From: a virus
Lineage: Duplodnaviria; Caudoviricetes
Length of the DNA stretch: 64,000 nt
Strand: one strand, 5' to 3'
IMG/VR virus record: IMGVR_UViG_3300021964_010723
The notes under the pieces are model-generated. The model ran no database searches. It was given only the letters and a program-made list of their open reading frames with translations, and was not told the DNA's origin. Position numbers and translations under genes: made by a program. Shown one piece after another: positions 3,557 to 39,876 of the stretch. Each line of letters begins with the position of its first letter. Position 1 is the stretch's first letter.

Positions 3557-4397
3557 TTTGAAGTTGATCTAATTGAGCTATTGTATCTTCAAGATCGACA
3601 TTAGCTTTATTATTGCCAAGTCCTAAATGAAAAGATTTACCAGTAGATGGATCTGGTAAACCTGCCCATGTTTTAGATAATCGTTTTAAAAATTTTGCAC
3701 TAGTTATTTGTCCATCTAAAAATTTATCTAAATTATGCTCTTTTTTAAGATGGAATAATGCAATCTTATCCTGTGTAGCTGCATCAAATACAGTCGTTTT
3801 AGGATCAAGACCCATCTGACTTACAAGGCTTCGCAGTGTTTTGTGTAAGTATTGATACCTACCGGAAGCAGAGCCACCATGTGATCTTATCCTTTTCCGC
3901 ATGTCTTGGAAAAGTTCTGCTAGTGTCATTGTGATGATTTGTGGACGTCTCTTGTTAGGATAAACGGCATCGTAATGGCCAGAAGATTCAGGTTTGGCAA
4001 TAATATCTAAAATCTCTTTTTCCTTGTTGAATGATGTAGCAAGGGGTTTTTCAATTGTTTCTGGATCAAGTTTTGGAGATGCTACCATTGCAGATAGCTT
4101 ATTAGGTTGCACACTCTTCTTACCATTCCAGCCCATCATAGCAAGAATTGTTTTCCTGCCTGCATCGCCGTCTGGTTTTAACCCTGCGTCTTTTTGGAAT
4201 TTTTTAACAGCCATTGCCGTCTTAGAACCGTAAATCCCATCTACAGGGCCTGCATCATAATTGTTATCATTTAACCATTCTTGCAGTTCTTTGACCTGTT
4301 CTATCTTTCCTCTTCGTGCCAGTCCGCCCTTCATCTTAGGATCGAGATACATAAACGTTGTAGTATCTTTGTCTAAATTAATTTCGTATAAATTCAT
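3549..4397 (-). CDS. Peptidoglycan hydrolase: PG-binding domain plus lysozyme-like domain
   Basis: VKELQEWL..GPVDGIYGSKT..AVKKFQ..GL.PDG.AG..T (PG_binding_1); ESSGHYD and ASGRYQY..TL lysozyme-like motifs. Confidence 0.8.
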   Translation of the reverse strand: MNLYEINLDKDTTTFMYLDPKMKGGLARRGKIEQVKELQEWLNDNNYDAGPVDGIYGSKTAMAVKKFQKDAGLKPDGDAGRKTILAMMGWNGKKSVQPNKLSAMVASPKLDPETIEKPLATSFNKEKEILDIIAKPESSGHYDAVYPNKRRPQIITMTLAELFQDMRKRIRSHGGSASGRYQYLHKTLRSLVSQMGLDPKTTVFDAATQDKIALFHLKKEHNLDKFLDGQITSAKFLKRLSKTWAGLPDPSTGKSFHLGLGNNKANVDLEDTIAQLDQLQIV

Positions 4398-5150: not shown

Positions 5151-5312
5151 ATGTTTAAATTTTTATTTGGTGCCTTTGTAGGTTCTTTTCTACTTTACAA
5201 CTTTATTATTCCGAATCCAAACTATAAACAAACTTTAGATAATATTAATCAATCGTTGCTTACCCTTATCCATCAAGCAACCCAAGAATTAGATAAAAAT
5301 GTTCAAAATTAA
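5151..5312 (+). CDS. Small membrane protein (53 aa, not in ORF track)
   Basis: Hand-translated MFKFLFGAFVGSFLLYNF...; exact TATAAATA at 5137-5144. Confidence 0.5.
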   Translation: MFKFLFGAFVGSFLLYNFIIPNPNYKQTLDNINQSLLTLIHQATQELDKNVQN

Positions 5313-5860: not shown

Positions 5861-5935
5861 GTCCCGGTAGTTAAATGGATATAACAGTAGACTTCTAATC
5901 TTCTATTCTAGGTTCAATTCCTGGTCGGGACACCA
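5861..5935 (+). tRNA. tRNA-Arg(UCU)
   Basis: Acceptor GTCCCGG/TCGGGAC, anticodon loop CT-TCT-AA, GGTTCAATTCC T-arm, encoded CCA. Confidence 0.9.
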
Positions 5936-27877: not shown

Positions 27878-28530
27878 TAAAAGCCTCCTGAACGACTACC
27901 GGTATCTAATGTTGCGCCTACCTGTGCTTGCACTAATCGTTTAGGTAGTCTGTTTATTTTAGTAGCAGTGCCTTCTGCATCAAGTGTAAATCTAACAAAT
28001 GTTTCTTCTTGTCCTTTTGCATCTAGAGTTTTACCATCTGAAAATATAATTTGGAACGGGTTTAATCTTAAAACTTCTATTTTTACTTCTGCAGGAATAC
28101 GAGTTCCATATTGTTCAGAACCTATGCCTGGAGTAGTATAATAATGGGCATTAACTACATAGTCGCCTGGTTGCAGTGCTCTAAGGGTAACTATTTCTCT
28201 GTTAAGATAGATTTTTTCTATCTCGCCATTTGGTAGTGTATAATAATCATTTCTTACACCTAAATCGTCCTTGTCTAGGTGTGCATGGCCTGCAACAGGG
28301 TTTATGTAGCTGACTTTGCCGTTGGGAGTTTCTACCCAAAGGTCAATATCACCTTCGTGATCATCTTGCCAGCTCATTACAATCATTATCTCTGCTTTGT
28401 ATTCTATTTCAGATGTTTTGGCAGGATTGTTGATCAATAAGAAGCTGATTAGGAACAGCATTACAAAGCCAAGTATTAAATTAAATAATAAATCTATAAA
28501 GGCAAGATTTGATACGTAACGTCTATCCAT
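27877..28530 (-). CDS. ExbD/MotB-like TM anchor fused to a YfaP/DUF2135-like domain
   Basis: LAFIDLLFNLILGF (TM with Asp); SW....DIDLWVETP.G....LDKDDLG...E......PGDYVVNAHYY. Confidence 0.6.
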   Translation of the reverse strand: MDRRYVSNLAFIDLLFNLILGFVMLFLISFLLINNPAKTSEIEYKAEIMIVMSWQDDHEGDIDLWVETPNGKVSYINPVAGHAHLDKDDLGVRNDYYTLPNGEIEKIYLNREIVTLRALQPGDYVVNAHYYTTPGIGSEQYGTRIPAEVKIEVLRLNPFQIIFSDGKTLDAKGQEETFVRFTLDAEGTATKINRLPKRLVQAQVGATLDTGSRSGGF

Positions 28531-28999
28531 CTACATGCTCATCCACTAGCACAAGTTGTAACTTTAACAGCACACTCGCAATCAAGCCAACCAGTGTAGT
28601 CCATAGAGCAGTTCCCATTCCTGTAGCCATCATACCCAGTGCTTCCTGTACACTTGAAGTATCTTCTACGTTCAAATCTATAAACACTGTGGTCAGCATG
28701 TAGATAAATCCTACCACAGTTCCTATCATTCCTAAGCTCAGCATGGTCTCACCGGCGAACCATTCTGGATTGGTGCTAAAAGTGTATCTGTCTTTATCAC
28801 GGTCAAATCGGTGTAATCTGTAGCCTAGTCTCAGAGAGAATAAGAAATATAATCCTATAATAACCCAGCTAATCTTAGTAATGTCACTCTTGTACAAGCT
28901 GTCTAGGAATCCAAACGTCCAGCTGAGATACATCACTAATACACTTACACAGAATACCGTATACCATTTAAGTCTAGTTTGTACATGTTCATTCATCAT
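28523..28999 (-). CDS. MotA/TolQ/ExbB proton-channel family protein
   Basis: LGMIGTVVGF...GMGTALWTTLVGL TM motifs. Confidence 0.75.
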   Translation of the reverse strand: MMNEHVQTRLKWYTVFCVSVLVMYLSWTFGFLDSLYKSDITKISWVIIGLYFLFSLRLGYRLHRFDRDKDRYTFSTNPEWFAGETMLSLGMIGTVVGFIYMLTTVFIDLNVEDTSSVQEALGMMATGMGTALWTTLVGLIASVLLKLQLVLVDEHVDG

Positions 29000-30639
29000 T
29001 TATTTATCTCACCCCATTGTTTAAAAGTGTAACACTTGGTATCTACTGTATGTATATAATCTGATCTGTCCTGTGTGCGGATGCGACCTTGACCATATAC
29101 GATGTCATAATCTCTATATGCTACTGGTCTTTGTACTGTAACGTCTATGTATTCGCCATAGCCTGTGCCTAGTGTAAGGAATGTTACCCAGCGTCCGTTA
29201 GTACCACGGAATGCACGACCGTTAGCTACAATACCTGCAAACTCTACACGGTCAAGCCACTGCTGTCGTACACCAAGCCCGTCTGGAAATCCCTTGTGCC
29301 ACCAGCCCGGTTCTGCAGGCACTTTCACCCTGTGTGCTTCGCAGTTGTAAACCCAGCGTCTATAACTGCCTTGACAATGCTTTAGACATGCTGCCCAGAA
29401 CTTGCGTTTGTTGTGTGCTTTCTGGTATGCCAGTGCCCAGATAAGCCGTCCTAGGTTAACAGCATGCGCCCTGCACAAACCAAAACCACTTAGCTCTTGC
29501 AGTGCTGTAATAGCTTCTTGCTTGCGTGGATGATCTCCTATCCGCTGCATAAATTCAAGTATCCTTGAATCGTTCTTCTTTGCAAACGCACGGCGATACA
29601 TGTCTGCTTCGTAGTTGTCTACGTCTATTATATCGCTGATAATCTCAATAGCATCATCCTCAAACACTATTGTGTCTTGTACTGCTTCTCTGCTCCAGTC
29701 ATGGAACATAGCAGCCTTCTGCCTGCCTGATAGTGCTACTGGACGTATCAGTGCAGTAGCAAACACACAATCCTCCACGCTCTGCGGTTGTAGCGCACGG
29801 AATAGCCTACGCATCGCAGGAGACTCGCCCTGTGTAACACCCAGCACATCTCCCCTACACAACAGTTCACTAGTAGCAGGATCCGTGCGTGGATAGTCTG
29901 CAAGTGCTGTATCCGGATCGATCTCTAGCAGTTGCGACAGTCCACGATTAGCTAGGATATCTACCTTAAGGTGCTCTAGGTCTTCTACTTCATATTTGTC
30001 CAGCAGTATTTGATTATCTGCTGATATAAGACTTTTGGGTAGCTGGCGTGTAAACATTACTACACCGCCACAATGCTTGCTTATACAACGCTTCTTGCCC
30101 AAGAGCTTGCGTTCTATACGTTTGGCTTCCTTAGGATCCACACCTGCAGATTCATACGTAAATCCACGCTTTAAAGCTCCTGTAGCGCCCAAACGCTTTG
30201 CTGCTTCTCTACGTGCGCTCTTTTCTTTATATGTAACGTAGTTGCTTAAACGTGCAGTCTTACCAGGCCATTTTTTAAATATCCGCTGCATAACTTCATT
30301 CTGCCTGTGATGCTCAAAGTCTATGTCAACATCGGGCAAGTCGTCACGCATTGGATTCATAAAACGTGCAACTGGTATACGCCACTGTACAGGATCGACA
30401 TCTGTAATACCAAGTAGGTAACAGATAAGGCTAGAGCCTGCGCTGCCACGTGTCATGTGGGTAAGGTCATCTGTGAGATCTATTATATCACATATTTGGA
30501 GGAAGTAATCTGTGAAGCGTTGATTGAGGATTAGTTCGAATTCTTCTACTAGCCTTAGCTTGTATTCTTCGCCTTCGGGTATGGGTCTTTTGAAGCGACC
30601 CATGAGCCTTTCTATATTATCTAAATCTGTATTTGCCAT
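28996..30639 (-). CDS. dnaE: DnaE-type (family C) DNA polymerase alpha subunit lacking the PHP domain
   Basis: RGSAGSSLICYLLGITDVDP, PDVDIDFE, SKHCGGVV, LKVDIL, GFGLCRAHA, C-terminal OB-like segment. Confidence 0.85.
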   Translation of the reverse strand: MANTDLDNIERLMGRFKRPIPEGEEYKLRLVEEFELILNQRFTDYFLQICDIIDLTDDLTHMTRGSAGSSLICYLLGITDVDPVQWRIPVARFMNPMRDDLPDVDIDFEHHRQNEVMQRIFKKWPGKTARLSNYVTYKEKSARREAAKRLGATGALKRGFTYESAGVDPKEAKRIERKLLGKKRCISKHCGGVVMFTRQLPKSLISADNQILLDKYEVEDLEHLKVDILANRGLSQLLEIDPDTALADYPRTDPATSELLCRGDVLGVTQGESPAMRRLFRALQPQSVEDCVFATALIRPVALSGRQKAAMFHDWSREAVQDTIVFEDDAIEIISDIIDVDNYEADMYRRAFAKKNDSRILEFMQRIGDHPRKQEAITALQELSGFGLCRAHAVNLGRLIWALAYQKAHNKRKFWAACLKHCQGSYRRWVYNCEAHRVKVPAEPGWWHKGFPDGLGVRQQWLDRVEFAGIVANGRAFRGTNGRWVTFLTLGTGYGEYIDVTVQRPVAYRDYDIVYGQGRIRTQDRSDYIHTVDTKCYTFKQWGEINK

Positions 30640-30681: not shown

Positions 30682-31281
30682 TTAGACAATATCACTTGTT
30701 TTGATTAGGATGCCTTGCTTTATATGATTTTTAAAATCTCTTTCATATACTATTTTACCTTCAAAATTCCAAGGTTCTTTTAAAAAATCTATAGGTCTAA
30801 ATTTTCCATTCTTGCAATCTTGATTAGTAATTTTTTTATTGTGTGTTATGTCATTAGTTAAGAAAAGGAATTTACTATGGCTTACAAAATTTTCGATTAA
30901 GTTACGTACTATTTCATTTGATAAATGTTGTAGAACATCTTTACAAATAATTAAATCTACAGTAGGAAAAATCCAAGACTTAGTCACAGTTTCAAATTTA
31001 ATAATATTATTGGCGTATTTTTTTGTATTTTCCTCCATTAAAAAAGGAACAACATCTACACCTATATATGATGTTATATATTTGTCCCAATTTATTAATG
31101 AACTAAATTGCCAGTCACCGCAGCCGTAATCTAAAACAGAATTAATATTTTCATCGGCTAAAATGCTTAGTAAACTTTGTCTATACTCTTCAGAATTTTT
31201 TACACTAGATCCAGGTCCAGAACCAGTACCCCAATAGTTATTTTTATATATACTAGAAAATATATTTTCTAAATTTTTCAT
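30682..31281 (-). CDS. Class I SAM-dependent methyltransferase
   Basis: VLDYGCGDW, GVDVV, DLIICKDVLQHL. Confidence 0.8.
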   Translation of the reverse strand: MKNLENIFSSIYKNNYWGTGSGPGSSVKNSEEYRQSLLSILADENINSVLDYGCGDWQFSSLINWDKYITSYIGVDVVPFLMEENTKKYANNIIKFETVTKSWIFPTVDLIICKDVLQHLSNEIVRNLIENFVSHSKFLFLTNDITHNKKITNQDCKNGKFRPIDFLKEPWNFEGKIVYERDFKNHIKQGILIKTSDIV

Positions 31282-32115
31282 CTAACCTACAAAGGCTTTC
31301 TCTACTACATAATCACCCGGAGTTCCTGTGTTACCTTCTGCAAATCCATTTGCGTCCAGTATACGTTTTAAGTCTTCATTAAATTCCATGCTACCGCAAA
31401 GCATTACACGATCTTGTTGAGGATCCATTTCTCCTAGTAATACCTTATCATCAATAAGTTCTGTAATACGTTTCTGATATCCAATATATAATTCATCTCT
31501 AGTTACAATAGGAAATAGATTTAGATCGTATCCTGTTAGGTCTGCCCTATATGCTTTAAGCTCGTCCTGCTCTCTAACACTCCATGCTACATTAACTTCT
31601 GCGAAAACATTAAAAATATCTTTCTGTCTTACTAGGCTCATAAAAGGTGCAATACCTGTTCCTGTTGCAAGTAACCAAAGCCTGCGACCTGGCTTTAGGT
31701 TTTCTAATAACAGGGTGCCTGTTGCCTTAGCGCCTACTTCAACTGTATCACCAGGCTGAATATTTTTTAGCCTTGAAGTAAGTGCTCCATCAGGCACCTT
31801 GATCGAATAAAATTCTAAATAGTTATCTCCTGGGGAACTGGTAATTGAATATGCCCTGCGTACCTTATCACCAAGTCCAATCATTACAAACTCACCTGCT
31901 TTAAATGTGTAGTCTACTGGTTTGTCTGTAACAAATCTAAACAGTGTATCAGTATAATGTTGCACTTCTTTAACCATTACCACATGCTTATCTGCTGCGG
32001 GTTTTTCAGCAACTTGTTCTGCTTGCAGTATTAATAGTTCTGCTTGCCACTCTGCTTCTGATAAAGCATGCCATCCTCTACAAAAATCTGGACTTCGTCC
32101 GCATCCACACGCCAT
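31282..32115 (-). CDS. fpr: Ferredoxin-NADP+ reductase with N-terminal CDGSH-like motif
   Basis: RAYSITS, LATGTGIAPF, MLCGS, C-terminal VEKAFVG; N-terminal CGCGRSPDFCRGWH. Confidence 0.88.
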   Translation of the reverse strand: MACGCGRSPDFCRGWHALSEAEWQAELLILQAEQVAEKPAADKHVVMVKEVQHYTDTLFRFVTDKPVDYTFKAGEFVMIGLGDKVRRAYSITSSPGDNYLEFYSIKVPDGALTSRLKNIQPGDTVEVGAKATGTLLLENLKPGRRLWLLATGTGIAPFMSLVRQKDIFNVFAEVNVAWSVREQDELKAYRADLTGYDLNLFPIVTRDELYIGYQKRITELIDDKVLLGEMDPQQDRVMLCGSMEFNEDLKRILDANGFAEGNTGTPGDYVVEKAFVG

Positions 32116-32124
32116 AGTTCTCCT

Positions 32125-33552
32125 TTAGTCTGTTTCAGTGTTTAGGTTATTTAAGAATTCTTTAAGTTTAGTACTGTCAGTTTTGGCTCGTATCTTACCT
32201 ACTGTATCTCCTTCTGCAGGATCCTCTCTCACGGTTTCCTGTTGTGTTTGTGCAGTCCTTTTGATCTGGTCAAACACTGTGCTCTTACGTTTGTTAAATT
32301 CTTGATAGTCTTCGTCTTCATTCATATCACGTATACGCAGATTATCAATATCAAATTCTAGATCTACTTTGCTACCAACACCACTTGAGTTACGTGTTTT
32401 CATTAGCTGTATCTGATATCTACCACGCTCTCGCATTGCCCTGCTTGTAAAGATTCCTATCACATTATCTGCAGTTTGTATCTTACTAAGTCCGCCTGAT
32501 ATGTGCGAATGATCAAACTCTATCTCCTCTACGCTTGCTCTGTTCAACTGACTAGCTGTAACAAACAGTGTGTTAGTTTCCATTGCTAAATTACGTAGTT
32601 CCTCACTTACATATTTGTCCTTAACAAACAAGTTCTCTGCTGATATACGTTTAGCGATAGGCATCATTAGATCTAAGTAATCAACAAGTATTACTTCAAT
32701 CTTACGTCCTGTCTTTACTTCAAACTCTTTAATGTAACTACGTAGATCATTTGCAGTCTTACCGCTTGGCATGTACTTGACTTGGAAAGCACCAGACTTC
32801 TTACCTATCATCCGTACTTTCATTTCTACATCGTCTATACTTTTAAATATCTCTCTGCTGGGTATATCTGTAACCATGCTGTCAAGTCGCATGCTTACAA
32901 TATTCTCACTAAGCTCAAACGTCAAGTATAATACGTTAAGTCCTGCAAGTGCCCAGTTCACTCCTAGATTAGCCAAGAATAAACTCTTACCAGCACCACT
33001 ACCGCCTGCAAATATATTAAGCTCTCCCCTATTAAATCCACCAAACAATTTCTTATCTAGCGTAGCCCAGCCTGTGCTAACTTGTCCATTACGGCTTTTT
33101 ATTTCTTCTAATCTTGTACGTGGGTCTCTCCAATAGTCTGTACCTAAGTCTTTTTGTAATCCTATTTGTACTGCTCGTTTAACTAGATCTTCAACGGGTC
33201 CATACTCTCCTTTTTCTAGTAAGTCTGCTGACTTGAGAATTGCATCTTCTAGTGCTTTGTGCCTACTAAATGTTTCAAACTCCTGTAACAGCCAATCATA
33301 ATGTTGTTCTTGTAGTTCGCCAGGATTCTTTAGATCACATTTGGCTGCAGCATTAATCATGTCAAACGTAGGTATTGCGTTATGCTCTGCTACATAATCC
33401 TTTAAGAATTCTGCTGCAGGTTGTAAGCGCCTATCAAACGTCTTAGGTTCAAATACACCTTGACATCTCACATAGCTTTCAGCATCTGTAAGGAACATCT
33501 CAAGATATACTTTTTGTATATCGTAACCGTAATCTACATTTTGTCTTGACAT
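32125..33552 (-). CDS. 41: Replicative DnaB-family helicase (T4 gp41-like)
   Basis: GGSGAGKS, LTFELSE, ILVDYLD, TASQLNR, QLMKTRN. Confidence 0.93.
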   Translation of the reverse strand: MSRQNVDYGYDIQKVYLEMFLTDAESYVRCQGVFEPKTFDRRLQPAAEFLKDYVAEHNAIPTFDMINAAAKCDLKNPGELQEQHYDWLLQEFETFSRHKALEDAILKSADLLEKGEYGPVEDLVKRAVQIGLQKDLGTDYWRDPRTRLEEIKSRNGQVSTGWATLDKKLFGGFNRGELNIFAGGSGAGKSLFLANLGVNWALAGLNVLYLTFELSENIVSMRLDSMVTDIPSREIFKSIDDVEMKVRMIGKKSGAFQVKYMPSGKTANDLRSYIKEFEVKTGRKIEVILVDYLDLMMPIAKRISAENLFVKDKYVSEELRNLAMETNTLFVTASQLNRASVEEIEFDHSHISGGLSKIQTADNVIGIFTSRAMRERGRYQIQLMKTRNSSGVGSKVDLEFDIDNLRIRDMNEDEDYQEFNKRKSTVFDQIKRTAQTQQETVREDPAEGDTVGKIRAKTDSTKLKEFLNNLNTETD

Positions 33553-33951
33553 TTATTTTTTGGTTGGCATTGTAAAAAGTGCATTTACTGCATTTTCAGT
33601 TGGCTTACGTGCAAACACACACCATTGCAGTACTTCTTCGTTTGGATAGTTTTCTGCTACATAATCTCGGAAGCTCTTGCCTGTTGTGTACACATCGTCT
33701 ACTACAAGCACAGGGTCGTTTATGTTCTGTGTACCGTACTTATCTAGTGCCTTGCCTAGTGCTACGCCACCTCTGGGTATACCTACGGCAGCTCTCCAGT
33801 TACGAGGCTCAAACTCTCGAATAATGTGTGCAAGTGCAACCCATTCATCTGGTGATATAGCATCACACTCAATTTTCCATGTAAGTGGCAAGCCTGCATG
33901 GCTAATAAAATTTATCTTTTGGAATAAATCTATGTTAATGTTTTTATTCAT
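33553..33951 (-). CDS. Type I phosphoribosyltransferase (OPRTase-like)
   Basis: FISHAG, WKIECD, VGIPRGG, VLVVDDVYTTGKS PRPP loop. Confidence 0.8.
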   Translation of the reverse strand: MNKNINIDLFQKINFISHAGLPLTWKIECDAISPDEWVALAHIIREFEPRNWRAAVGIPRGGVALGKALDKYGTQNINDPVLVVDDVYTTGKSFRDYVAENYPNEEVLQWCVFARKPTENAVNALFTMPTKK

Positions 33952-35471
33952 GAAAATACCTTTACATTGTATAGTTTACTAAATTCTTGTGCATCTGTCA
34001 ATGTGTTTACTATGGGTTTGCCTTTTATATTGAGGCTTGTGTTTAACAGCATAGGACAGCCTGTTACTTCGTACCATCTTTCCAACAACGCTCTAAAACC
34101 AGGGTGATCTTGCTTTGTAACTGTTTGAACTCTGCTGGTTCCGTCTGCGTGGACAATTGCAGGGTATCGTTCAGGATCCTTACAATGTGCCGTGTACTGC
34201 ATATAACGTCCGAAGGGCGGCTCAAATAAACTGGATGCGTGTTCTGCAAGGACTGCAGGGGCGAAGGGACGGAACTTCTGTCTACGTTTAATGGCATTGA
34301 CTTTATCTTTAATATCCATACGCTGAGGGTCAGCAAGAAGGCTGCGAGCGCCAAGGCTACGAGGACCGAACTCGGCTCTTCCTGACGCAACCCCTGCAAT
34401 ACCCGTTTGCATAAGTTCATTAACGATTTCATCTACTGGATATTCTCCTTCTATCTCATAACCTAAATACGGTCCGGGCCATTCTATGTGTGTGCCTCTG
34501 TGTGCAAGCACTGCACCTATGCAACTGCCTGCATCGCCCGGATTAGGCATTATCCAAATGTTATCTTCACCGTTCCAGTGTTCAACTATCTTGCTATTAG
34601 CACTACAATTCAATGCACAACCACCCATAAACACTAGGTTACTGCTAGCGTATGTCCTAGCTACAGCCTTACTTATCCTAGTTAATATATGCTCATATGC
34701 CCATTGCGTTCCTGCTGCTACGTCATATGCCCATTGTGTAAACTCTTGCTTACCGTCTACGATATTAAATGCAATCTTAGTAGGCTCCCACCACATGCAC
34801 CCTCTATGTAGATTATGTTTAAGTTGGAAGTTAGGAAGGAGATTAAAAATATTTAAATGATTAGGAAACTGTTCCCAAAAATCGTTTAATATAGTTTCGC
34901 CATACTTACCAGCATCTCCATATGCTGCCATACCCATTAGTATGTACTCTTCCTCATTTGGTTTCAGTCCGATACGTTGTGTTATTGCACTATACCAAAT
35001 GCCTATGCTGTTTGGATAGTTCCAGGTGCGTTTACACGTAAGTGTATCATACTCACCTTCCCATACACTTAAAGTATTCCATTCGCCAATAGCATCAATG
35101 ACTAGCACAGTTGCATGATCAAACCCACTGGTATAATATCCAGCTGCTGCATGTGAATGATGATGACCTATCGTTGATATAGGCGCTGTCAAACCAAAGG
35201 ATTTTAAATATTTTTTTATGTTGTTCTTGTTAAGTAAATCTTTTTGTCCAGCATACAACTGCCGTGTAGTTTTTAGTAAAGGTTTTTCGTACCATACAAT
35301 CTTATTAGGTTCTCCCCATTGCAGTGCATAGTCAACAATACTAGGATTTAAGTGTGCATCATTTTTTTTATGGCTAAATCTTTCTGTATGACTTGCAAAT
35401 TCTATTTTGTCGTTGTTATGCACACTAATTGCAGCGTCATGACTGTTAGCACTTATTCCCCATGTAATCAT
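33948..35471 (-). CDS. Carbamoyltransferase (NodU/CmcH family)
   Basis: SHDAA, HHHSHAAAGY, DAIGE, MGMAAYG, GGCALNC, EFGPRSLGARS, RQKFRPFAP, LLNTSLN. Confidence 0.93.
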   Translation of the reverse strand: MITWGISANSHDAAISVHNNDKIEFASHTERFSHKKNDAHLNPSIVDYALQWGEPNKIVWYEKPLLKTTRQLYAGQKDLLNKNNIKKYLKSFGLTAPISTIGHHHSHAAAGYYTSGFDHATVLVIDAIGEWNTLSVWEGEYDTLTCKRTWNYPNSIGIWYSAITQRIGLKPNEEEYILMGMAAYGDAGKYGETILNDFWEQFPNHLNIFNLLPNFQLKHNLHRGCMWWEPTKIAFNIVDGKQEFTQWAYDVAAGTQWAYEHILTRISKAVARTYASSNLVFMGGCALNCSANSKIVEHWNGEDNIWIMPNPGDAGSCIGAVLAHRGTHIEWPGPYLGYEIEGEYPVDEIVNELMQTGIAGVASGRAEFGPRSLGARSLLADPQRMDIKDKVNAIKRRQKFRPFAPAVLAEHASSLFEPPFGRYMQYTAHCKDPERYPAIVHADGTSRVQTVTKQDHPGFRALLERWYEVTGCPMLLNTSLNIKGKPIVNTLTDAQEFSKLYNVKVFS

Positions 35472-36583: not shown

Positions 36584-36612
36584 ATTATAGCAAAGTAGCA
36601 GTAGATTGTCAA
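36584..36612 (-). promoter_or_regulatory. Sigma70-type promoter for primase (leaderless)
   Basis: TTGACA-17-TATAAT with TG extension, 6 nt before ATG. Confidence 0.7.
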
Positions 36613-38168: not shown

Positions 38169-38792
38169 TTATAAAAAATCTTTAAACGTTTTATAATCCA
38201 ATGCATACATATTCTTTAATATTGTCTTTTCTTCTTCTGTCACTTGTACATCTTTTATCGCAAAAGAATTTTTCCAAAAAGCAACAGGAATATCAGCACT
38301 TCCAGATATTTTTTCTATTAAAGGTATAAACTCTGTATTAATATTTTTCGTATTAATTATATGGGTATACAGATTTGCATCACTTCCATAAGAAAATACT
38401 AATGATTCTGTATGATTTTTAATGTCTCTGCTTTCTTGTCTAATTACATTTATATTGTTTAAAAAATACGAAAAATTAGGAATTTTACTTCGAGTATTAT
38501 CTTTATTCCTTTGACAAACTCTATCTTTATAACAACTAACAAACCTTTCTATTGGATCTCTTATAATTGCAACTCGCACAGGGTAAGATTTTATTACTTC
38601 TGATTGCATTTTGCTAATAGATGTAACCTGCCAGTTGTTTCTATGAAGTTGCTTTGTATCTTTTCTATATCTAAATTGGCCTAGAAAAGGGTATCCCATT
38701 ATTGTAATGCAGGTGCTAGATCCGCATTTGTTAGCTACACTTACTAAAATTTTATTATTATTTTCATAACTTATACAATATGTATCATTCAT
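38169..38792 (-). CDS. Sulfotransferase family protein
   Basis: NKCGSST (5'-PSB-like) and RDPIERFVSCY (3'-PB) motifs. Confidence 0.75.
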   Translation of the reverse strand: MNDTYCISYENNNKILVSVANKCGSSTCITIMGYPFLGQFRYRKDTKQLHRNNWQVTSISKMQSEVIKSYPVRVAIIRDPIERFVSCYKDRVCQRNKDNTRSKIPNFSYFLNNINVIRQESRDIKNHTESLVFSYGSDANLYTHIINTKNINTEFIPLIEKISGSADIPVAFWKNSFAIKDVQVTEEEKTILKNMYALDYKTFKDFL

Positions 38793-39351: not shown

Positions 39352-39876
39352 TTACTCGCAGCATTCACAAAAACCGTTACCATGTAAATTTTTATTAATT
39401 TTATAAGCTTTTTTCTTTGCCATTTTCCATTTCAGCGGAGAAACTCTATCATTAAAAGTAATGCCTTGCAAATGATCCCATTCATGTAAAAAGACCTTAA
39501 CACTATAATCTTTTAAATGATTTCTCTTTAATTCTAAATTTTCATCATAATATTCAACTAAAATTTCTTTTGGTCGTTTAACTTGTACAAAAACATTTGG
39601 AAAACTTAAACATCCTTCTATGTCTATAACAGATTCTTCTGTGTGTTGTAGAACAGTTGGGTTAATAAGTAGTGAGCTATTGTCTTTGGTATCTCCCATT
39701 ACAAATAATTGTGCATCTATTCCAACTTGATTTGCAGACAACCCGATGCCATTATTAGTTAACATAAATTCTACCATTTCATTTTTTAATTCAACTGGAT
39801 CAAAATCTACGTTATCAATGTCTACATCTGCAACTTTTTTTGTAAGGAATTCGTCTGGATAATATACAAGTTTCAT
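39352..39876 (-). CDS. def: Peptide deformylase
   Basis: GIGLSANQVG, EGCLSFP, HEWDHLQG. Confidence 0.95.
   Translation of the reverse strand: MKLVYYPDEFLTKKVADVDIDNVDFDPVELKNEMVEFMLTNNGIGLSANQVGIDAQLFVMGDTKDNSSLLINPTVLQHTEESVIDIEGCLSFPNVFVQVKRPKEILVEYYDENLELKRNHLKDYSVKVFLHEWDHLQGITFNDRVSPLKWKMAKKKAYKINKNLHGNGFCECCE

Follow-up and report, generated by a model that had tools for sequence, protein, structure and literature searches.

A CDGSH-like Cys/His module fused to a phage ferredoxin-NADP+ reductase, a candidate Fe-S centre

What does a short stretch of conserved cysteines and a histidine do at the very start of a phage reductase? The question is raised by fpr, a gene on the minus strand of a 64,000-nucleotide stretch of viral DNA (IMG/VR record IMGVR_UViG_3300021964_010723; Duplodnaviria, Caudoviricetes), which we call the window. 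Its product is a putative metal-binding module, a linker and a ferredoxin-NADP+ reductase (Fpr; FNR for the wider family). Translation of the open reading frame (ORF) gives MACGCGRSPDFCRGWH as the N-terminus, or MACGCGRSPDFCRGWHALSEAEW in a longer read of the 277 codons. A preliminary description of the locus had proposed that a [2Fe-2S] motif of the CDGSH type, with three Cys ligands and one His ligand (3Cys-1His), is fused to a complete Fpr, and that the protein is a self-contained reductase-ferredoxin. Our analysis identifies, from sequence, an FNR-family reductase with a fused candidate metal-centre module; viral mini-proteins that share this module make up a large family without a name.

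The motif itself is real. In an alignment of 30 homologues reaching down to ~50% identity, M1, C3, C5, R7, S8, C12, G14, W15 and H16 are invariant, and G4, G6, P9, D10 and R13 are nearly so. The pattern C-x-C-x2-S-x3-C-x3-H stands at the extreme N-terminus in 119 of the 120 best cluster representatives (49-97% identical), the lone exception being a truncated sequence that begins with an adaptor-like MCIRDR. A loose form of the pattern occurs a single time across the six frames of the window. Given this invariance, retention and rarity, the motif is beyond chance, and the module is, judging by its conservation, under strong selection. The fpr ATG occupies 32113-32115 and the TAA of the upstream DnaB-like gene 32125-32127. 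The start codon is well supported because of the position of an AGGAG sequence between them and because homologues with the fused form start M-x-C-G-C; a mis-called start or a chance motif, both considered, are ruled out by the ribosome-binding site and the conservation. The artefact against which the preliminary description had warned, a mis-joined ORF, can be dismissed: 23 viral loci and 119 protein clusters show the fusion as a single open frame. The module also occurs elsewhere as a separate ORF, and its two settings therefore reflect modularity rather than an assembly error.

Residues 47-277, which follow in the same 277-residue frame, are by sequence and predicted fold a complete bacterial subclass-I ferredoxin-NADP+ reductase, as had been claimed. 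The best NCBIfam match is to Fpr (NF008178; residues 47-254, E 5.7e-36), at a score of 124 bits that is below the equivalog cut-off of 390 bits for a model of the E. coli subclass-II type. Pfam places FAD_binding_6 (PF00970) at residues 49-127 and NAD_binding_1 (PF00175) at residues 148-248, both above cut-offs. In a PDB sequence search, the alignment of residues 47-277 with 2bgi, the FPR of Rhodobacter capsulatus, has E 1.8e-53 and extends to the last residue, and the best matches, which also include Xanthomonas 4b4d and Brucella 6rr3, are all subclass-I. The AlphaFold2 (AF2) model of the full protein (mean local confidence, pLDDT, 89; pTM 0.80) matches the FPR structures 4b4d, 6rr3, 5thx and 2bgi in Foldseek at E ~1e-28, with template-modelling (TM) scores of 0.77-0.79 relative to the query length and 0.83-0.85 relative to the target length; for 4b4d the values are E 1.7e-28 and TM 0.78/0.84.

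The cofactor motifs of the reductase are intact. Among the 30 homologues, the motif R87, A88, Y89, S90 in the domain that binds flavin adenine dinucleotide (FAD) is invariant, as are T151, G152, T153, G154, P157, R181, C240 and G241 in the NADP domain and E272, A274, F275 and V276 in the C-terminal tail. R181, the 2'-phosphate Arg, pairs with an Arg of 2bgi, and the subclass-I C-terminal extension, an Ala-Phe-Val tail where other enzymes end in Tyr or Trp, is present, with EKAFVG aligned to EKAFVG of the R. capsulatus enzyme. Bacterial subclass-I FPRs (2bgi, 4b4d, Azotobacter vinelandii 1a8p) thus share with the phage protein the two-domain FAD/NADP fold (~40-43% identity by Foldseek), the RAYS, TGTGIAP and CG motifs, and the EKAFVG tail. 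However, the N-termini of cellular relatives are unrelated to that of the phage protein and have no Cys/His loop.

The N-terminal module is predicted to be a unit of ~35 residues in which a 14-residue loop, C-x-C-x6-C-x3-H, is capped by a helix. In the AF2 models residues 1-14 form a loop, and the helix spans residues 20-35 in the full protein and 20-37 in a model of the module by itself (pLDDT 85-93). The flexible linker that follows is the site of insertions and deletions in the 30-sequence alignment. Searches of Pfam and the PDB cover nothing of residues 1-46, the module profile, compared with PDB sequences, returned only a spurious HMG-box match (E 0.3), PHROGs gave no family for the 277-residue protein, and we found no Pfam, NCBIfam or PHROG family that covers the module or the fusion. 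In the literature we found no paper with the motif string and none linking CDGSH, FNR and phage.

Two families resemble the module: CDGSH/NEET (PF09360; mitoNEET, bacterial MiNT) and DUF1289 (PF06945; E. coli YdhL-type putative Fe-S proteins). With reference sets from 81 proteobacterial genomes (52 CDGSH and 34 DUF1289 domains), hhalign aligned the module with CDGSH at a probability of 87.8% (P 3.3e-6, score 25.2, 19 columns) with the four ligands in register, and with DUF1289 at 85.2% (P 6.1e-6, score 25.1, 26 columns) through G-C-x-R-[ST] ... G-W ... and the helix. In each comparison 0 of 150 column-shuffled controls reached the real score (maxima 16.6 and 19.1). The two families show no similarity to one another (probability 0.5%, P 0.13, score 8.8, 9 columns).

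The CDGSH assignment of the preliminary description holds for the order of the ligands and for their alignment, an example of which sets CACGRSANQPFCDGSH against CGCGRS--PDFCRGWH. The module and CDGSH/NEET proteins both have 3Cys-1His in the order C-x-C ... C-x3-H, G-R-S as non-ligand residues behind the second Cys, a G two positions ahead of the His, and a helix that begins at the ligand His; in the NEET domain of 39 residues, the ligands are likewise 3Cys:1His and a helix comes next to the motif on its C-terminal side (PMC6006223). The assignment does not hold for the spacing or for the remainder of the signature. The loop counts 6 residues, or 7 in the free form described below, against 8 in CDGSH, so that C-x-C-x6-C-x3-H replaces the canonical C-x-C-x8-C-x3-H. 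In place of the signature C-X-C-X2-(S/T)-X3-P-X-C-D-G-(S/A/T)-H the module reads C-G-C-G-R-S-P-D-F-C-R-G-W-H, with D replaced by R and S by W, and 'CDGSH' becomes CRGWH. With its start at residue 3, the motif leaves no room for the strands that precede it in NEET proteins, and a beta-cap made of such strands is not expected. PF09360 (cut-off 29.5 bits) gave no listed match at E<=10 to the full protein, 14 N-termini or 10 free modules, a search in which the HMMER filters drop most matches above E ~0.1. The module is therefore best described, from its sequence, as CDGSH-like in its ligand loop and below the thresholds of both families.

DUF1289 might instead be the source of the module, if its first two Cys were lost, C12 and H16 were recruited and the likeness to CDGSH is convergent. 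All 14 N-termini match PF06945 weakly (E 0.008-0.03; residues 4-27 against model positions 17-40), the hhalign score just given was reached by none of the shuffles, and the register G-C-x-R-[ST]-x-D-x3-G-W-x2-[LM]-[ST], with the helix, is ungapped against real DUF1289 sequences. On the other hand, the PF06945 score of member 1 is 14.6 bits, well under the 27-bit gathering cut-off, and of the module's four ligands only C5 lies inside the aligned stretch. The DUF1289 signature, C-x3-C-x7-C-x2-C followed by R-T-x-x-E-I-x-x-W, has counterparts in the module only for its last Cys and for R-[ST] ... G-W; the family has four Cys and no His ligand, and its first two Cys are without counterpart. The tandem proteins described below also point the opposite way. 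We regard descent from DUF1289 as very improbable; as the family is without established function, such an ancestry would change the history of the module and hardly its mechanism. Among five long frames examined for a DUF1289-Fpr fusion none was FNR-like, and one second domain was Nudix-like by eye. In a proteobacterial genome (L208:850-1797, minus strand) DUF1289 lies in one frame with a domain that, judged by eye, resembles a Nudix/CoA-pyrophosphatase domain; if so, DUF1289 would there be an N-terminal addition to an enzyme.

The module also exists without the reductase. A 36-column profile of the N-termini (A2), searched with hmmsearch against 1.84 billion representative proteins, found 434 proteins at E<=1e-3 that, apart from Fpr fragments, are 42-110 residues long. 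These free proteins read M-x-CGCGRSP-x-G-x-C-[IVLMC]-GWH-x-L-[ST]-EEEY..., with a loop one residue longer, the same helix and unconserved tails. In IMG/VR more than 590 stretches match the pattern, and 528 were confirmed by tblastn. The ESM Atlas places clusters of free modules in Uroviricota under the label 'hypothetical protein'; among clusters that bear a name, a viral CDGSH family comes closest (score 0.77), which is only a lead. Pfam gave nothing significant for 10 free modules, and a tblastn search of GenBank phages with two free mini-proteins gave no match even at E<=10, to which the low-complexity filter may contribute. By its distribution, the module is autonomous, occurring free of Fpr as a family of mini-proteins without a Pfam family.

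Some of these mini-proteins have a tandem architecture. In one (P0129) the module is duplicated. In four others (P0179, P0270, P0271 and P0272; 83-96 residues, on contigs of up to 42 kb), an N-terminal CGCGRSPxGxC[IC]GWH module is followed by a C-terminal C-x-CGRTQDPNGNCDGSH, which is the literal CDGSH signature (C-x-CGRT...CDGSH) with a 9-residue loop. The NEET fold is a dimer or pseudo-dimer, and this arrangement, as in P0270, hints at pseudo-dimers, and the tandem proteins may be pseudo-dimeric two-cluster mini-proteins. The pairing supports, at the level of sequence motifs, a kinship of the module with CDGSH or at least a functional equivalence, and is the further point on which the CDGSH assignment of the preliminary description stands. 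A second variant family (P0305, P0309 and P0333) has CCGWH and a conserved C-terminal ELWF-x-GGSCTG.

A word-index search for relatives of the whole protein yielded thousands: of 8,000 candidates that were scored, 7,995 had E<=1e-5. The best 120 are 260-292 residues in length, and almost all of them align with the entire query (100% coverage); full-length homologues at this coverage have 267-292 residues. Among bacterial relatives from species-representative genomes, the best 80 are FPRs of Alphaproteobacteria that reach 48% identity at most and whose N-termini lack the motif. A tblastn search of the whole protein against GenBank phages found only distant matches (at most 41% identity), mostly in bacterial-looking records. 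Among 80 sampled IMG/VR fpr loci, 23 have the long, motif-bearing form, four of them 96-99% identical to the window protein. The short form, in frames of ~235-270 residues, has the first strand at its start (M-x-LKVTEVEHYTD) and is 47-56% identical to the Fpr body. Within 10 kb of the short-form fpr genes there is no separate ORF with the motif, and a stand-alone copy of the module was found in only one of five short-form records (fragments), so the idea that short-form phages compensate with a free module is not supported. In G095, a record of 237 kb, a short Fpr is accompanied by a free module ~150 kb away.

In a quick maximum-likelihood tree, the cellular sequences group together with 100% support and the viral sequences fall outside this clade; within the viral part, the long form is found at three or more separate positions. 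The loop has 6 residues in all fused copies and 7 in all free copies. This uniformity would best fit a single fusion event with later losses or exchange.

Genes near the free module and near viral fpr suggest a link with radical-SAM and Fe-S chemistry. The free module lies in a recurrent co-directional block of genes for a glycosyltransferase, two unknown ORFs, a phosphoribosyltransferase, HIT, the module, a 67-residue ORF, FolE, a QueE-like radical S-adenosylmethionine (radical-SAM) enzyme and 2-3 conserved ORFs; several ORFs of the block (67, 134 and 173 residues) are without any family. A FolE or QueE-like radical-SAM gene is within 2.5 kb of the free module in 37 of 80 viral loci (L234-L313), an example being L247, with the module at ~4001-4111, FolE at 5215 and QueE-like at 5901. 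Next to viral fpr, genes for QueD/PTPS recur in 14 loci and those for an IscA-like carrier of the A type in 13; a family-B DNA polymerase and sugar-nucleotide enzymes are also encoded there.

We also surveyed 12 whole fpr-bearing viral records. In five of them, from jumbo phages, radical-SAM (PF04055) matches number 23 in record G091, 18 in G094, 15 in G092, 13 in G097 and 9 in G096. An A-type Fe-S carrier is present in 7 of the 12 records and the C-terminal domain of a 7Fe ferredoxin in 5, including the long-form G091, while flavodoxin, plant-type ferredoxin and canonical CDGSH above its cut-off are each present in 0 of the 12. In G091 (IMGVR_UViG_3300026097_000805) the 23 PF04055 matches, 17 of them above cut-off, fall within ~48 kb (3.9-51.7 kb); this radical-SAM cluster ends ~12 kb from the long-form fpr at ~63.4-64.2 kb, and the 7Fe ferredoxin and the IscA-like carrier are at ~88 kb and ~105.7 kb. 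T4-like marine viral genomes have been described with an A-type carrier and 12 radical-SAM genes, with no reductase or ferredoxin mentioned (PMC5332604).

The reading that we favour, although as a whole it falls somewhat short of probable, is that electrons flow from NADPH to FAD, on to a tethered 3Cys-1His Fe-S centre, and from there to radical-SAM and other Fe-S enzymes of the phage. The fpr product would be a functional NADPH-dependent subclass-I ferredoxin/flavodoxin reductase made early, together with the replication genes, and the virus-specific module of ~35 residues at its N-terminus would bind a Fe-S centre of the CDGSH type, probably [2Fe-2S]. FAD would pass electrons from NADPH to this centre, which would hand single electrons to Fe-S clients. 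As clients we infer the radical-SAM enzymes of jumbo phages that need one-electron reduction, including QueE of the 7-deazaguanine pathway. QueE is routinely activated in vitro by flavodoxin, flavodoxin reductase (FPR) and NADPH, and the in vivo electron donor of radical-SAM enzymes is still unclear (PMC11994313). The cluster of the CDGSH protein mitoNEET is reduced by a flavin reductase with flavin mononucleotide (PMC9490426).

A comparable order of domains is found in BenC-type reductases (BenC 1krh, MmoC, T4moF and NqrF), in which a metal-centre domain precedes the FAD and NAD(P) domains. Their FNR part matches at E 1e-15 or better, and the phage module is tethered at the position of their [2Fe-2S] domain. 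However, BenC-type reductases carry a plant-type 4-Cys ferredoxin fold of ~90 residues, whereas the phage module is a 35-residue loop and helix with a 3Cys-1His set, and it is attached to an Fpr-type rather than a dioxygenase-type reductase.

A variant of the favoured reading is that the tethered centre donates its cluster. In a fuller version of this idea, the protein would act as a NEET-like, NADPH-gated cluster donor or in Fe-S repair, in which a labile [2Fe-2S] cluster is passed to apo radical-SAM enzymes or an A-type carrier, and Fpr sets the redox state or powers reductive cluster coupling rather than feeding catalysis. The exposed His ligand makes NEET clusters labile and transferable (PMC6006223), and both the IscA-like carriers beside viral fpr and the carriers of the whole records fit such a role, as does the combination of A-type carriers with many radical-SAM genes in T4-like marine viral genomes (PMC5332604). 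Yet free modules associate with FolE/QueE and not with a carrier gene, and the proposal depends on the same putative Fe-S binding as the electron-transfer reading. We consider it quite improbable.

Several observations weigh against the proposed electron path to radical-SAM enzymes. The departures from CDGSH proteins set out above (the loop two residues shorter, the impossible strands and the PF09360 null) belong here, as does the fact that DUF1289 scores the module as well as CDGSH does, which makes its ancestry ambiguous. The 40-residue AF2 model of the module (pLDDT 83.7) had no Foldseek match and only helix-only matches in VIA-align (Z<=3.2), results that are uninformative rather than negative. 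No metal can be assigned from sequence, and Cys3His is also a common zinc ligand set. The potentials of NEET-type clusters are usually far above those needed for the reduction of radical-SAM clusters. Short-form viral Fprs do without the module, and we found no radical-SAM or Fe-S client gene in the window. The context counts come from related phages, among which shared synteny is not independent evidence. Finally, G091 has the fused form as well as a 7Fe ferredoxin, so the module is no simple replacement for a ferredoxin. An exchange of this kind, which we considered, is weakened accordingly, and the 'self-contained reductase-ferredoxin' of the preliminary description is a hypothesis.

The 7Fe ferredoxin bears also on what the loop binds. 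It is the classical partner type of subclass-I FPR, and its presence would fit a scheme in which electrons go straight from FAD to a separate carrier, and the loop forms a structural knuckle around zinc or another non-redox metal and serves as a docking or oligomerisation handle to the 7Fe ferredoxin, QueE or a Fe-S assembly complex. Cys3His is frequent as a set of zinc ligands, the module is tiny, with one loop and one helix, it lies below the threshold of every Fe-S family, and its conserved amphipathic helix could mediate protein contacts. Other features are harder to reconcile with a knuckle: the register C-x-C-G-R-S ... C-x-G-x-H equals that of a known [2Fe-2S] loop, including the non-ligand G, R, S and G; the tandem partners bear a literal CDGSH motif; and the sole enzyme seen fused to the module is an electron-transfer flavoprotein. 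From these sequence features, an Fe-S centre in the loop seems marginally probable and zinc rather unlikely, and the docking handle as a complete account is unlikely.

In a broader version of the electron-transfer reading, the ~35-residue CGCGRSP-x2/3-C-x-GWH-helix unit, free or fused, would be a hitherto unrecognised redox protein of minimal size, specific to viruses and with an Fe-S centre. As a pared-down relative of CDGSH, it would replace flavodoxin or ferredoxin for the radical-SAM enzymes of marine phages (QueE and large tailoring islands). We regard this version as doubtful. If it is correct, the Fpr fusion would be the smallest known self-sufficient system for reducing radical-SAM enzymes with NADPH. 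Jumbo marine phages with 10-20 radical-SAM enzymes must solve the reduction of these enzymes inside the infected cell, and a phage NADPH reductase with a putative built-in one-electron carrier is a concrete and testable candidate for the reductant. The free module is very common in uncultured viruses and stands within operons for 7-deazaguanine DNA modification. Binding of [2Fe-2S] by the module would establish a minimal cluster-binding motif outside the NEET fold, would give a name to a large family of 'hypothetical' phage mini-proteins, and might provide a compact reductase for in-vitro radical-SAM chemistry. If the module binds zinc, it would be an ordinary adaptor of less interest.

The position of fpr in the window (Table 1) is consistent with early expression. 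A promoter of perfect extended sigma-70 consensus precedes the primase gene, and between this promoter (36612-36584) and 27154-27136 we found no terminator-like site on the minus strand. The genes that follow the promoter are, in order, those for primase, a carbamoyltransferase, a 132-residue ORF, DnaB, Fpr, the methyltransferase and a DnaE-like polymerase. Given the perfect promoter and the lack of a terminator until 27154, fpr is probably part of an early operon with replication genes that runs from primase to the DnaE-like gene. The promoter sequence suggests that the host RNA polymerase would transcribe the replication block, including fpr, early in infection. The closest IMG/VR record is an 86-kb fragment with an estimated completeness of 21%, which implies a genome of several hundred kilobases.

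Table 1. Positions of fpr, the parts of its product, and adjacent elements in the window
Feature	Coordinates	Strand	Basis or remarks
Whole gene: Fpr fusion, 277 residues (N-terminal putative metal-binding module, linker, Fpr)	31282..32115	-	ORF list and sequence; stop codon included
Shine-Dalgarno AGGAG	32120..32124	-	4 nucleotides upstream of ATG, right after helicase TAA; from sequence
Putative 3Cys-1His metal site, residues 3-16 CGCGRSPDFCRGWH	32068..32109	-	C-x-C-x6-C-x3-H, invariant positions
Acidic amphipathic helix of module, residues 17-36	32008..32067	-	L18, E20, E22, E26 conserved; AF2
Linker, low confidence, variable length, residues 37-46	31978..32007	-	pLDDT <50 at residues 36-39
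FAD-binding beta-barrel with RAYS motif (R87, Y89, S90), residues 47-127	31735..31977	-	PF00970
NADP(H)-binding domain (TGTGIAP, R181, C240-G241) and C-terminus EKAFVG, residues 148-277	31285..31674	-	PF00175
DnaB-like replicative helicase, upstream neighbour	32125..33552	-	phrog_19, E 1.8e-69; gap to fpr 9 nucleotides
Methyltransferase, downstream neighbour	30682..31281	-	phrog_3382, E 3.7e-28; first base directly after fpr stop
Sigma-70 promoter, extended perfect consensus (TTGACA, 17 nucleotides, TG, TATAAT)	36584..36612	-	12/12 matches; directly upstream of primase gene

Other genes of the same block have features of their own. The carbamoyltransferase gene between those for primase and DnaB (33948-35471, minus strand) is NodU/CmcH-like (phrog_1601, E 1e-96), and a homologue of it recurs in 16 fpr loci (for example, L082:5772-7325). 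The DnaE-like protein of 547 residues (28996-30639, minus strand) matches only the middle of phrog_405 (positions 360-845 of 1190) and may, from this partial match, be a split or trimmed Pol III alpha; in related phages that carry fpr, a gene for a family-B polymerase adjoins fpr instead of the DnaE-like gene (L154). The minus-strand block of the replication genes also includes genes for a MotA/ExbB-like small membrane protein (28523-28999), a peptide deformylase (39352-39876) and a sulfotransferase-like protein (38169-38792).

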